This document shows positions 19,497-31,698 of a stretch of 64,000 nt of DNA, one piece after another (position 1 is the first letter of the stretch; each line of letters begins with the position of its first letter). Both the position numbers and the translations under genes were made by a program. The notes under the pieces are model-generated. The model was given only the letters and a program-made list of their open reading frames with translations, had not been told where the DNA came from and searched no databases. Source of the DNA: a virus; IMG/VR virus record IMGVR_UViG_3300023178_001963; one strand, 5' to 3'.

Positions 19497-20390
19497 ATGG
19501 CTAGACGAGGTCAAAATTATTTAAACAACAAAGATATGTTAAAACAAATCCACATATCTAAGTCAAACTTTTGTTGGTTTGAAGACAGAGATTTGTATCA
19601 TAAATTTGATATTATTATTGATAATATATCAGGCGAATTAAACATAAAAGAAGAAATTAACGGTCTAATGGATATGGCAAGACAAAATCGTGCTGACCGT
19701 TTACAGAAAGAAGCATGGGATCTAAACACAGACAAAAAGAAAAAACAAGCAGATTTTTCTGTGGATCCAACTTCATTCAATGAAGAAGAAATTGTATTTC
19801 GAGTAATGACTTATGAACACATTCCAGATGAACCCGGACGTAAACAAAACCCAAAGACAGTAGCAGATCATAAAGTGAAACTAAACTTCCCACCTTATAA
19901 GCATTACATTCTTAGAAATGATGAGGTCACTGAAGTTGGTATTTCACATTTTAACAAAAATAAAGAGTTTGATTTAGAGTCTGGTCGTATCACGGCAACA
20001 CTAGCAAACATGTATATCAAGTTAGTTGAGCGTTATTCGCAACGTGCTAACTGGCGTGGTTATACATACATTGACGAAATGCGTGGACAAGCTCTACTAC
20101 AGTTGACACAGATTGGTCTACAGTTTAATGAAGCGAAATCAGATAACCCGTTTGCTTATTACACTGCCGCAGTGAACAACTCATTCACCCGTGTTCTTAA
20201 TATTGAAAAGAAAAATCAAGGTATTCGTGATGACTTGTTAGAGAAGTCAGGACAAGCACCAAGTTGGACAAGGCAACTTGAACACGAAATGAAATCACAA
20301 GAACGTTGGAAAAAAGTTACCAGTACTAAGATTACAGACGAACAAATCCCTACTGAAACTATTAAAGAGATTTACGCAGACGATGACTAA
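19497..20390 (+). CDS. gp55: Late-transcription sigma factor (T4 gp55-like)
   Basis: 'NYLNNKDML', 'NWRGYTYIDEM' and 'NPFAYYTAAVNNSF'; directly upstream of gp47/gp46 as in T4-like phages. Confidence 0.88.
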   Translation: MARRGQNYLNNKDMLKQIHISKSNFCWFEDRDLYHKFDIIIDNISGELNIKEEINGLMDMARQNRADRLQKEAWDLNTDKKKKQADFSVDPTSFNEEEIVFRVMTYEHIPDEPGRKQNPKTVADHKVKLNFPPYKHYILRNDEVTEVGISHFNKNKEFDLESGRITATLANMYIKLVERYSQRANWRGYTYIDEMRGQALLQLTQIGLQFNEAKSDNPFAYYTAAVNNSFTRVLNIEKKNQGIRDDLLEKSGQAPSWTRQLEHEMKSQERWKKVTSTKITDEQIPTETIKEIYADDD

Positions 20391-24790: not shown

Positions 24791-25027
24791 ATGACAACAA
24801 GTAAATTCTTAGAATGGGCGCAATTATTCACAGGATGTACTGCGGCACTTATAGTGTCCGCTAATTTAGGAGACACATGGGTTTTTTGGGCTATGTGTCT
24901 TTTCTTTATTAAAGACAGTATGATGGGAGTGTTTGCATATATCAACAGCTATCCAGGTATTGTAATGTCTAGTGCGATATATGTACCTATAGATGCTCTA
25001 GGCATCTACAGATGGTGGTTATTTTAA
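24791..25027 (+). CDS. Small membrane protein (about 3 TM segments)
   Basis: Hydrophobic 78-aa ORF ending 'LGIYRWW'; TAAATA immediately upstream. Confidence 0.65.
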   Translation: MTTSKFLEWAQLFTGCTAALIVSANLGDTWVFWAMCLFFIKDSMMGVFAYINSYPGIVMSSAIYVPIDALGIYRWWLF

Positions 25028-25554
25028 TTAGTACCTTTAATTGATTTACTTTCTACTTCCTCAGAACACTTATTCCAAAACAATTCAGCTCCCAGGAACC
25101 ACCACTTACCGTGATGTCTACTTTGATACTCAACACCCGGTTGTACAAACATGCCGCTGTGAAACTCTTTATCCTGTATCATTACATATTCACCCTTGCG
25201 TGTGATTTTAATGAACAAAATGTTCAAATCCTTTTCTTCGGCAACTTCCATTGTTTGGTCTATCCAAGACTCTAGTTGTGCTACAGGGTTACCAGTAATA
25301 ATTTGATGAAATGGTAGGTCCGCATAATTCTTGCATTCACAGTTAAAGTAAGTCCAGTTATCAGGTGGAATAATATCACCTTTAAAACTTCTCACTTGTC
25401 CCTCACTTAGCGTTATAGTTCGGTAGTTATTACTTCCTCCGATATATGCTCCGCTATTAGGTACTCGTACAAAAGAACCGCCATATTTCTCACTAAGGAA
25501 CTTAGCCATTTGTCTTTCATAACTACTTCCTTTTGTTTTACTTTTACTTGCCAT
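25024..25554 (-). CDS. Holliday junction resolvase-like PD-(D/E)xK nuclease
   Basis: 'SKTKGSSYERQMAKFL..F.RVPNSGA..GDII..ECKNY'. Confidence 0.8.
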   Translation of the reverse strand: MASKSKTKGSSYERQMAKFLSEKYGGSFVRVPNSGAYIGGSNNYRTITLSEGQVRSFKGDIIPPDNWTYFNCECKNYADLPFHQIITGNPVAQLESWIDQTMEVAEEKDLNILFIKITRKGEYVMIQDKEFHSGMFVQPGVEYQSRHHGKWWFLGAELFWNKCSEEVESKSIKGTN

Positions 25555-25564
25555 TTCTTATCTC

Positions 25565-26135
25565 ACTTAAAAGGTCTAAAGACCTAAAACTCTCATAAAT
25601 CTCATATCGCTTTCGCTCAATCGATTTATTCGGTTTTTATTTTATAAAGATATTATATCTTTAATTACTTGCCTGCGGCTAAGCCACAATTGCCCCAATG
25701 CTGGGACAACTGCGGAAAAGCTAAAACTTGCCATAGCTTCATCGCCTCTGTTTTAGAGCTAGTAGCCAGTAACTACGGGGTCGGTTGGCGATTCCCCCTT
25801 CACTCAGTATTGCTCCTTTCGGACCAACGGCACCTCATGATATCCTAAACAGACAAAATATCATGTAAGTTGATAGTATTATAGTAATCTATCAGCGGTT
25901 ATATATTTATAAACTGGTCAACCACAGCCTTTGGAGCCGCGGTCGTTTTGAATTCTGAACACTCTTTTGTGGTTACGAGAAGAATAAGGGAGTTCGTCCC
26001 CTCTAATCTGACAGCAGATCCTCACCTGCAATCTCAATCCCGAGTCGGCAACCCGACCAACAGATCCACTATGTATGATTTATTATTAGCCATTGTCTTT
26101 GCCTTTAGTTGCCTATATTAGTTGTGTTTTTTGTA
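25565..26135 (-). ncRNA. Candidate large structured ncRNA (about 0.5-0.55 kb; ends uncertain)
   Basis: ORF-free gap with about 10 hairpins. Imperfect positions are G-U on the minus strand, there are GAAA tetraloops, and GC is raised. Confidence 0.6.
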
Positions 26136-26141
26136 TTAGCC

Positions 26142-26381
26142 TTAGAGTATTGGCATTCCTGCTTTTTTACTCATTTCAAAATTATCTTCTATTATATCAT
26201 TAATATGGTTTATATGTTCAGCTGGCATATCATATAGATGTTCTATATTGACGCCACCTCTCATATACCAAGATAACTTTAACATATTCTTATGAAACTT
26301 GTCAAGCTCTTTTTCAAATTTTTTTGATTTTTCTGCTATATCTTGCTGACTTGCAGTTAGGAGCCAGCGGTGGAAAAATTT
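26142..26381 (-). CDS. gp51-like hub assembly segment, probably reached by a -1 frameshift (or a 47-aa ORF from ATG 26285)
   Basis: Hand translation: (K)FFHRWLLTASQQDIAEKSKKFEKELDKFHKNMLKLSWYMRGGVNIEHLYDMPAEHINHINDIIEDNFEMSKKAGMPIL*. Missing from the ORF track. Confidence 0.7.
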   Translation of the reverse strand, partial: KFFHRWLLTASQQDIAEKSKKFEKELDKFHKNMLKLSWYMRGGVNIEHLYDMPAEHINHINDIIEDNFEMSKKAGMPIL

Positions 26382-27190
26382 ACAGGATTCATCTCCATTT
26401 CTACGACATCCTCATGTTCGCATTCTGGACACTTGAAGTTCATAGTTGTTGCTTGTCTTGGTCCAACAACTAGTTTAGTTACAGCTTCATTTATTTTTTG
26501 TACAAATGTACTTGGTACATTTGCTAAAAACTCACTTATCTCTTGTTGGTCAGTAACTTCAAAATCTGGTCCCTCTACTTTTCCAATAGTATTTGTTAAC
26601 AAGTCTACGTTGTGTTCAGCTATTTTTTTAAAACTAGCGTAAAACTTTTTTGATATTTCTAAATCTTCCGTATCGTCATTTATATCAGTTAAGTTTTTAA
26701 TCATTCGTTTCTGTTCTAATTCTATTAACGACATTCTTGTTATATTTTCAACTGTTGGCGGTCTGACATGAATCTTTAAGTCCTCATATTCAATCGGATC
26801 GATATATTCTATCTCAGGAAATCTATTCAGCATATAATTTACATCAACAGAAAAACTGCTTATCTCTTCGCATTTGGAACACTTGTGTTCATGTGTGATA
26901 TCATCGCCATATGTAGCATATTGTATTGCTAAAAATAATGCCTCTACATCTATGTTACACATTTTTTTAGGTTCTGGTATATCGGGACAACAACTTCTAA
27001 TAACACTTACAATAGCTTCACCGTTTAATAACGCATCTGGGTTTTTTAATGTTATTTCGTCTAGTGCTGTCATTGGTAAAACGCCGACTTCATCCAAAAC
27101 AGTGGTTTCCATTTCAGGATTAAATTTACCACCTGTTGGTAGTTTTATATAAATTTTTGGCTTCCTGAAGTATTTGTTTAGTTGATTCAT
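26357..27190 (-). CDS. gp26: Baseplate hub assembly protein (T4 gp26-like)
   Basis: 'YIKLPTGG', 'D.EALFLAIQYATYG' and two CxxC pairs. A GAGG RBS favours the start at 27190 (MNQLNKYF). Confidence 0.78.
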   Translation of the reverse strand: MNQLNKYFRKPKIYIKLPTGGKFNPEMETTVLDEVGVLPMTALDEITLKNPDALLNGEAIVSVIRSCCPDIPEPKKMCNIDVEALFLAIQYATYGDDITHEHKCSKCEEISSFSVDVNYMLNRFPEIEYIDPIEYEDLKIHVRPPTVENITRMSLIELEQKRMIKNLTDINDDTEDLEISKKFYASFKKIAEHNVDLLTNTIGKVEGPDFEVTDQQEISEFLANVPSTFVQKINEAVTKLVVGPRQATTMNFKCPECEHEDVVEMEMNPVNFSTAGS

Positions 27191-27293
27191 TTTGATAACC
27201 TCATTGTGTGATAAATACACTATAATATATATTTATTATATTTGTATTTAACTTAATAATTATATACGAATATAACTCAAAAGAGAGGTAAGT

Positions 27294-31278: not shown

Positions 31279-31286
31279 ATACTATT

Positions 31287-31508
31287 ATGAGATACAGTGA
31301 ATTAAAAGAAAACTATTCTCCTGACGAGGATGATGCAAACAAAATAGAATTGGACGATACACGTAAAGTTCGTCTAACTCTTAAGCACCTTTCCAAGTTA
31401 AGAAAGATTAGAGAGTACAGAAAATATCAGGAAAATATAAAATCTTCACAACTTAAAAAGCAGTATGGTGCTGCTGGCGGCGAAGGCGGAGAAATTCCTG
31501 ATATTTGA
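31287..31508 (+). CDS. Small head-module hypothetical protein
   Basis: Follows TATAAATA at 31274-31281; lies between the portal and core genes. Confidence 0.7.
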   Translation: MRYSELKENYSPDEDDANKIELDDTRKVRLTLKHLSKLRKIREYRKYQENIKSSQLKKQYGAAGGEGGEIPDI

Positions 31509-31560
31509 TATTAACTAGTATGTTATATCAACTGTAAGTGTACTAAATATCTCTACAACC

Positions 31561-31589
31561 AAAAAACGGCTGAAAAACAGCCGTTTTTT
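31561..31589. terminator. Bidirectional intrinsic terminator-like hairpin
   Basis: AAAAAACGGCTG-AAAAA-CAGCCGTTTTTT. Confidence 0.7.
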
Positions 31590-31619
31590 AATGTTTCCAT
31601 ATAAAACCTATATTTTATC

Positions 31620-31627
31620 TATAAATA
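31620..31627 (+). promoter_or_regulatory. T4-type late promoter TATAAATA (head operon). Similar (G/T/C)ATAAATA boxes at 27210, 31274, 35592, 43319(-), 45357, 47099, 49912, 53360, 54700, 59079 and 61787
   Basis: Recurrent motif in intergenic gaps upstream of structural genes; a gp55 homologue is present. Confidence 0.8.
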
Positions 31628-31698
31628 CTTTTGAAACAAGAGTGTTTCTACAATTTTGCCACATAATTCGTGGCTAAACTAAGATAAGGAGACTTATA

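Follow-up and report, generated by a model that had tools for sequence, protein, structure and literature searches.

The question raised by this locus is what occupies the one large gap in an otherwise densely coding stretch of virus DNA (64,000 nucleotides, nt, of the IMG/VR virus record IMGVR_UViG_3300023178_001963, referred to as the window). The region free of open reading frames (ORFs) covers positions 25555-26141, or 802 nt (25555-26356) when ORFs of at least 60 amino acids alone are counted. As had been claimed in an original prediction made from the sequence, it is the largest internal ORF-free stretch of the window; the other apparent gaps are giant ORFs that run past the window end. 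What the gap contains is a genuine RNA gene, whose large structured product of approximately 506 nt belongs to an uncatalogued family. The RNA is encoded on the minus strand (25569-26074), its ends being placed, to within a few nucleotides, by a putative proximal promoter and a terminal hairpin. A trans-acting architectural RNA or ribonucleoprotein of the GOLLD/ROOL kind, expressed from a stand-alone gene, is the reading that is tentatively favored for its function.

The RNA has a G+C content of 42% compared with 36% for the window, and a recount within 25681-25800 returned the 61 G+C out of 120 positions that had originally been counted by hand. Folded as RNA, the minus strand reaches -167.2 kcal/mol (z = -4.24), a value that none of 100 dinucleotide-shuffled controls attained, whereas the plus strand reaches a z-score of -1.27. 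The gap, its composition and the strand-specific folding place an RNA on the minus strand beyond chance expectation, in agreement with the single-stranded minus-sense molecule that had been proposed. The eight non-Watson-Crick positions within the three long stems of that proposal were read from the sequence and are indeed G-U on the minus strand.

The gene downstream of the gap encodes a Holliday-junction resolvase with hundreds of metagenomic relatives, and the contigs that code for the closest of these share the ORF-free gap, which aligns better than the flanking genes. A search pattern derived from the most conserved stretch identified 23 viral contigs, 14 of them genuine, and a stricter pattern identified 53 marine metagenome contigs, all of which were confirmed as genuine by a hidden Markov model (HMM) of the family. 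Pattern searches thus place the RNA in 67 marine viral or metagenomic contigs, each backed by the family HMM, which itself matches 76 loci. These loci contain 48 distinct full-length RNA sequences (lowest identity to the window 51%) in a single copy per locus, and a 96-kb viral contig likewise contains one copy only. Conservation of the RNA exceeds that of the protein genes on either side: it has 77-93% nucleotide identity to the window in relatives where the upstream baseplate hub gene has 70-73% and gp46 72-81%. Compensatory changes preserve the fold in marine jumbo phages even though the neighboring proteins are only 50-60% identical. A blastn search of 50,697 phage records with the window RNA and with the relative L057 returned no match, a peptide-pattern search of viral contigs for the resolvase returned nothing, and a search of a literature collection found no paper describing the window RNA.

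A consensus fold of 16 sequences (RNAalifold) contained 85 pairs, 47 of which show compensatory change. The model was then refined by a search for stacked, covarying column pairs in the 48-sequence alignment, a helix-stack filter being used because the clade structure overwhelmed the signal of plain mutual information. A long-range GGCUA/UAGCU pairing suggested by RNAalifold was rejected, as GGCUA is part of a promoter word and the pair is mismatched, not compensated. The resulting model of 116 pairs was counted on 22 sequences that are non-redundant at 92% (alignment A5): 90.0% of all cells are paired, compared with 38-43% when partners are slid by 1-3 columns, both sides change in 73 of the 116 pairs (26-33 when slid), and covariation scores 0.362 as against 0.07-0.10 for slid partners. 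On each of five summary measures the observed value was reached by none of 500 shuffles. For the core of the RNA, 96.6% of the cells in alignment A4 are paired, compared with 34-49% when slid. The covariation test was clearly passed, and fold and covariation together support the original prediction of a phage-encoded, large, structured minus-sense RNA with a pseudoknot.

From 5′ to 3′ the RNA consists of a multi-helix domain, a hairpin, a core with three long-range pairings, a long hairpin, a variable A+U-rich linker and two 3′ hairpins, all given here in minus-strand order. The 5′ domain (25969-26069) is closed by helix P1 (26069-66/25972-69) and encloses Pa (26058-53/26048-43), P2 (26042-38/25980-76), P3 (26037-34/26011-08), Pb (26029-26/26017-14), and Pc (26003-25998/25991-86). 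It is followed by the 10-bp hairpin Pd (25919-25945), which carries the conserved loop CUCYAAAGG and shows changes on both sides in 10 of 10 pairs. The core (25747-25917) contains the helices H1 (25894-85/25881-71) and H2 (25870-58/25843-32), the GNRA hairpin H4 (25823-14), and helix H6 (25776-73/25765-62) in addition to three long-range pairings. In the first of these (PK1), helix H3 (25828-24/25788-84) crosses H5 (25798-95/25780-77), both helices covary, and the window displays the family pattern of a 5-bp GUUGG/CCAAC crossing a 4-bp GRGG/CCYC with ACCG-type joints between them. The second (PK2, 25853-47/25753-47) joins the loop sequence UCUGUUU of a 12-bp stem to AAACAGA and covaries in seven of seven pairs. 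In the third (PK3) the sequence CCAG (25917-14) pairs with the CUGG loop of H6 (25769-66), and the change from CUGG/CCAG to CUAG/CUAG is found in 8 of 22 sequences and extends through a whole clade. Downstream of the core follow the covarying long hairpin Hf (25684-25715), which has a 14-bp stem of which the inner 11 bp are conserved, an A+U-rich linker (25634-25670) that measures approximately 30-90 nt and is unalignable between clades, and a 3′ hairpin (25590-25633) with an internal GCGAAAGC (GNRA loop) in which 25629-23/25601-595 and 25616-15/25610-09 covary. The last element is the terminal hairpin UAGGUCUUUAGACC with its U-run (25569-25586), the likely 3′ end.

The coordinates and the strand that had been proposed from the single sequence hold, and most of the proposed helices are retained in this model. 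Compensatory changes in relatives were found for GUCGG/CCGAC, GGGA/UCCC, ACCGCGGC/GCUGUGGU, UGAUAG/CUAUCA, the 12-bp stem, UCC-GAAA-GGA, GGGG/CCCC, GC-GAAA-GC, and AGGUC/GACCU. The suggested pseudoknot between GUUGG and CCAAC covaries as well: 8 of 22 sequences have A-U in place of G-C, and L008 has GUUUCG/CGAAAC. Two stems were shortened, GUAGUU/GGCUAC to the GUAGU/GCUAC that compensatory changes support and the 14-bp stem to its inner 11 bp. Two hairpins were dropped: CUCU/AGAG is not conserved, and its 3′ half AAACAGA forms PK2 instead, while AAGCUA/UAGCUU falls into the variable region. The promoter array, PK2 and PK3, and a kinship with RNAs that contain the Polynucleobacter-1 motif (all described below) go beyond what had been proposed.

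Two covariance models were built, R1 for the core and R2 for the 5′ domain. R2, trained without the L007/L008 lineage, finds the 5′ domain of L008 (E = 3.7e-15) with P1, Pa, and Pc compensated. One clade (L005, L009, and L022) carries a different, unrelated 5′ domain. The RNA is modular, and because of this clade the core and the 3′ part are regarded as its constant module. The replacing segment is longer and structured (L005 3325-3560, L009 2805-3015, L022 723-930), with Pd, the core, and the 3′ part kept. In addition to two GNRA loops, the RNA contains many invariant unpaired bases, among them the blocks GGUGCC, CUGAGUGA, and ACCGAC, a combination that suggests tertiary packing.

The RNA could not be assigned to any known class. 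A search with the covariance models of Rfam (4,227 families), at the gathering cut-off and at E-values up to 10, returned nothing relevant, including transfer-messenger RNA (tmRNA), RNase P, and group I and II introns, in agreement with the original prediction. Neither the GOLLD (RF01998) nor the ROOL (RF03087) model matched, and ARAGORN detected no tRNA and no tmRNA in the window. With regard to a group I or II core, the lack of an Rfam match is accompanied by the absence of a hairpin between the 3′ strands of two crossing helices, and an intron was rejected because the flanking ORFs are complete, separate genes. A protein-coding region was rejected on three grounds: no ORF exceeds 59 amino acids, indels do not occur in threes, and pairs are compensated. 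A mere DNA element is contradicted by G-U pairs that occur on one strand only, by GNRA loops and by sense-oriented promoters. An RNA of a type III toxin-antitoxin system was rejected given that the transcript contains no internal tandem repeats and that the neighbors are DNA nucleases.

Large ribozymes typically have the size of this RNA, its three long-range pairings and its blocks of unpaired nucleotides that do not vary, and the knotted core might be a catalytic center, for example one that releases the RNA from long late transcripts by self-processing or that cuts or joins another RNA. Transcripts that start at upstream promoters would need 5′ trimming. However, no Rfam ribozyme matched at E-values up to 10, no interrupted gene is present and no conserved candidate cleavage site was identified, and for ROOL and GOLLD no catalysis has been shown so far (PMC12286853). 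A ribozyme is therefore considered unlikely.

The signals that flank the RNA bear on its expression. Three copies of a late-promoter-type motif, CTAATA(N)AA, are located on the minus strand at 26081-26139 (26139-26134, 26121-26116, and 26089-26084), the last of which starts 17 nt before the sequence AUAGUGG. Every member of the family carries two to six direct copies between the upstream small ORF and the first helix; their spacings in relatives cluster at approximately 11, 22, 33, and 45 nt, and the last copy starts 14-17 nt before AUAGUGG. In at least eight relatives (L012, L014, L029, L031, L035, L060, L068, and L070), the virion-protein gene divergent to the hub gene has the same word 28-30 nt before its ATG, with a ribosome-binding site after the word, and the window contains a one-mismatch version (CGAATATAA) at the corresponding place (27264-27272). 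The arrangement of CTAATATAA (in the window CGAATATAA), then AAAAAGAGAG, then ATG appears to be the late-promoter consensus of this phage group, and a similar CTAAGATAA/CTAAGATTT word is located ahead of two further late genes in the window. A gene for a gp55-type late sigma factor is present at 19497-20390 (phrog_12791, 6.6e-82). Late promoters of phage T4 consist of a lone -10-like octamer. By analogy, the CTAATA(N)AA repeats are interpreted as tandem late promoters, and it is this interpretation that places the putative 5′ end of the RNA near 26074. Just upstream of the array, 34 of the 48 members carry a sigma-70 promoter (TTGACA, 17 nt, TAnnnT, often with TG).

At the other end, the terminal hairpin UAGGUCUUUAGACC has the same sequence in 39 of 48 members and is unique within the window, and its variants keep the pairing (UGGGUCUUUAGACCC, enlarged loops). 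A short U-run follows 3′ of the hairpin, and the two end 14 nt before the resolvase start codon in the window. In many relatives the hairpin is followed by a promoter-like TTAAGATA word that resembles sequences ahead of other late genes. Promoter array and terminal hairpin point to an independent RNA gene that is probably expressed strongly late in infection.

These signals also bear on the possibility that the RNA is a primer for replication or recombination, forming an R-loop at the A+T-rich linker that primes DNA synthesis while the upstream repeats act as iterons. The repeats are spaced in multiples of approximately 11 bp, an A+T-rich stretch lies inside the element, gp46, gp47, and the resolvase are encoded nearby, and the sigma-70 promoter of 34 of the 48 relatives would be an early one. 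Like ColE1 RNA II and the transcripts of the T4 origins oriF and oriG, the RNA would be a non-coding transcript of several hundred nucleotides near replication and recombination genes with an internal A+T-rich region. However, the repeats need no iteron explanation because the same word serves as putative virion-gene promoter, and the copy in the window lacks an early promoter in its intergenic region. Priming at T4 origins is an early event that depends on middle promoters and ends once late transcription starts, whereas this RNA gene is loaded with promoters of the late type. The known primers act as RNA-DNA hybrids without conserved pseudoknots, and R-loop priming has no need of three conserved long-range pairings. 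A primer function is considered quite unlikely.

The genomic neighborhood is conserved. Wherever a locus reaches far enough, the order is a diverging virion-protein gene, the hub gene, the small ORF, the RNA, and a nuclease gene, followed by converging gp46, gp47, and gp55. In every such locus the hub gene and the small ORF were found by tblastn immediately upstream of the RNA. The window RNA lies accordingly between a gp26-like baseplate hub gene (26357-27220, minus strand, PF12322, phrog_150) and the junction-resolvase slot, close to gp46 and gp47, and the portal gene is located 3.5 kb from the RNA. The conserved small ORF (26142-26285, minus strand, detected in relatives by tblastn) is kept in all relatives with 49-79% amino acid identity (window 26142-26356, minus strand), and conserved sequence extends from its ATG upstream to the stop codon of the hub gene; in L003 this region is a 72-amino-acid ORF that overlaps the hub stop. 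The second-largest ORF-free stretch of the window (420 nt, 31279-31698) directly follows the portal gene and has a TATAAATA word at both ends (31274 and 31620).

In contrast to the constant upstream genes, the resolvase slot is variable. The window encodes a PDDEXK_15/RusA-like Holliday-junction resolvase (25024-25554, minus strand, PF24608 1.3e-28, phrog_244), many relatives encode a 146-amino-acid SegE-type GIY-YIG protein (PF19835, 2e-35), and some contain another ORF. The cultured giant phages A4 (Escherichia coli) and RaK2 (Klebsiella) have a T4-type endonuclease VII within the same gene order. Three unrelated nuclease folds therefore occupy a single slot (window 25024-25554, minus strand; L016 5352-5792, minus strand; L096 5979-6470; L097 5220-5714). 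The neighboring gene is also displaced in individual loci: in L009 a 171-amino-acid ORF lies between RNA and resolvase, and in L022 the distance exceeds 1 kb. Two explanations of the variety are considered, that the Holliday-junction resolvase was replaced by non-orthologous genes or that a homing endonuclease invaded the slot. Free-standing homing endonucleases such as those encoded by the T4 seg genes settle beside highly conserved genes, and the recurring Seg-type GIY-YIG neighbor fits a homing endonuclease; non-orthologous replacement of the resolvase fits equally well.

A different arrangement is found in two distant relatives, L093 (a 322-kb GenBank contig) and L094, in which the resolvase is approximately 50% identical to that of the window. 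Here gp47, gp46, a small ORF, and the resolvase gene follow each other on one strand and are succeeded by a gap of 540-680 nt, so that the RNA adjoins the resolvase gene even where it lies downstream of it. Each gap starts, directly after the resolvase gene, with a match to the Rfam family RF01718 (Polynucleobacter-1) of 69 bits (L093 4562-4704) and 59 bits (L094 4548-4704), compared with a gathering cut-off of 37 bits, and the match covers the first 140-160 nt of the RNA. The core follows as GUUGG...GAGG...CCAAC...CCUC with PK2 as CUAGAGU...ACUCUAG in L094, and as GUCGU...GUGG...ACGAC...CCAC with PK2 as CUAGCAC...GUGCUAG in L093. Downstream of the core both RNAs contain a GC-rich long hairpin, an A+U-rich stretch, and at the 3′ end a UUUA-loop hairpin (L094) or a comparable small hairpin (L093). 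The RNAs that bear Polynucleobacter-1 and the window RNA have the GGUGCCGUUGG word in common. Since R1 reaches L094 at an E-value of 0.15 only, the kinship rests on the shared architecture and this word. Iterating R1 toward the two loci resulted in an alignment polluted by noise (A7), and MAFFT misaligned their H1 and H2 helices (A8).

RF01718 itself has no match within 25000-26700 of the window at E-values up to 10, nor in the closer relatives L005, L007, L009, and L014. The 5′ domain of the window RNA has another layout, and RF01718 spans only a fragment, but the RNAs of L093 and L094 that carry it as 5′ domain share with the window RNA the double pseudoknot, the long hairpin, the linker, the terminal hairpin with a UUUA loop, and the position beside the same resolvase gene. 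When Polynucleobacter-1 was filed in 2010, it was classed as a small motif, possibly cis-regulatory, from Burkholderiales and fresh water (Weinberg et al., PMC2864571). It now looks like the mere first domain of a larger jumbo-phage RNA of 500-650 nt.

The position of the RNA raises the possibility that it is a cis-acting leader or attenuator for the resolvase-slot gene, in which case the terminal hairpin would be the switch. A precedent is the leader of T4 gene 49, which encodes endonuclease VII. In both cases a long untranslated stretch precedes a T4-like junction-resolvase gene and early as well as late transcription is found or, here, predicted, but the T4 leader is a simple hairpin that masks the ribosome-binding site, whereas the RNA described here is a knotted structure of 500 nt that has its own putative promoters and is retained where the downstream gene has been exchanged or relocated. 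In the window the RNA is directly upstream of and co-oriented with the resolvase gene, and its hairpin and U-run end shortly before the start codon. Untranslated stretches of 908 nt in phage A4 and 364 nt in RaK2 precede the endonuclease VII gene, and Polynucleobacter-1 was marked as possibly cis-regulatory by the Rfam curators (PMC2864571). However, the downstream gene comes from at least three unrelated families and is displaced in L009 and L022, in L093 and L094 the resolvase gene comes first and the RNA lies downstream of it, the core and the 3′ hairpins are held apart by the variable linker, and in many relatives the promoter-like TTAAGATA follows the hairpin. A riboswitch or other single-gene leader was rejected on the same grounds: the adjacent gene varies, moves away or lies upstream, and the RNA therefore does not serve as the leader of a single gene. 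Both an origin primer and a cis-acting leader are made somewhat less likely by the tandem late promoters and by the exchange of the downstream gene, and the latter is judged very unlikely.

The opposite neighbor suggests a role in the virion, the tail hub or packaging, comparable with the pRNA of phage phi29, in which the RNA would act with gp26/gp51-like hub proteins or with portal and resolvase. The RNA immediately follows the hub gene and its small companion ORF, the portal gene is not far away and the promoters are of the late type; moreover, the resolvase of T4 acts at packaging. It is gene order that provides this support, however, and cultured relatives with the same gene order contain no detectable homologue. 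With the filters switched off, R1 and R2 returned only noise in the hub and resolvase loci of Phosso, PA5oct, Atu_ph07, phage A4, and RaK2; neither R1 in the whole Phosso and PA5oct records nor RF01718 in all five whole records gave anything above threshold. Phosso and PA5oct do have stretches of 1.0 and 1.5 kb upstream of a PDDEXK resolvase, unannotated in Phosso (L001 1760-2773) and with tiny annotated ORFs only in PA5oct (L002 1668-3180, corresponding to 75667-77179); the two stretches hold no ORF or only annotated ORFs of 38-50 amino acids. Folding of the syntenic gap is unremarkable on the two strands of Phosso (z = -2.1 and -2.8) and phage A4 (z = -0.5 and -1.3), and of four ncRNAs that the PA5oct omics paper (RNA-seq) lists, none is at the syntenic place. 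No T4-like phage is known to depend on an RNA for its assembly. A function in virion assembly or packaging is accordingly given a low probability.

The tentatively favored reading, a trans-acting architectural RNA or ribonucleoprotein, draws on the comparison with GOLLD and ROOL. Both are phage-borne RNAs with a variable internal linker that form RNA-only cages, and GOLLD rises late in lytic growth (PMC12286853). They resemble the window RNA in being phage-encoded stand-alone genes of 500-800 nt with many helices, several pseudoknots, and a poorly conserved internal linker, but their helix layout is different and no sequence or model match connects them to it. The RNA would be transcribed from its own gp55-type late promoter array and, in most relatives, also from a promoter of the host sigma-70 type, so that it would be made throughout infection and heavily late. 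Transcription would stop at the near-invariant hairpin, the next gene having apparent start signals of its own. The product might be a stable particle with phage or host proteins as binding partners, or one that self-assembles as ROOL and GOLLD do, and it would act late, during DNA resolution, packaging or virion building. Its place beside the resolvase slot would more likely be positional than the mark of a dedicated RNA-nuclease pair, and could result from conserved gene order, from a shared late transcription region or from Seg-type nucleases using the conserved RNA gene as a landing site.

Several observations weigh against the architectural reading. ROOL and GOLLD are usually found near tRNA genes, and the window contains none. 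The window is among the 14 of 48 members without an intergenic sigma-70 promoter; the candidates that it does have, within the small ORF, are weak. The transcript, both of its ends, and its abundance are inferred from the DNA, and the late-promoter interpretation derives from the position of the motif. Finally, the RNA is found beside a junction-resolving nuclease in two gene arrangements, which could reflect a functional link.

A further proposal is that the RNA is an essential architectural or catalytic part of late DNA maturation in an entire giant-phage lineage, either as an RNA-only particle or as a ribonucleoprotein. It would then work with whichever nuclease occupies the slot, in concatemer resolution and packaging. 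This is a long shot, but if true the RNA would be the first RNA cofactor of T4-like phage morphogenesis and would found a class of its own among large functional RNAs. Large RNAs with an intricate fold form few known classes, each of which has been informative, from the ribosome, RNase P, and introns to, more lately, OLE, ROOL, and GOLLD. The alignment and structure are sufficient to order the transcript for probing, cryo-electron microscopy and activity tests and to mine metatranscriptomes. The RNA described here is abundant in marine viral contigs and lies within the conserved core of giant-phage genomes.

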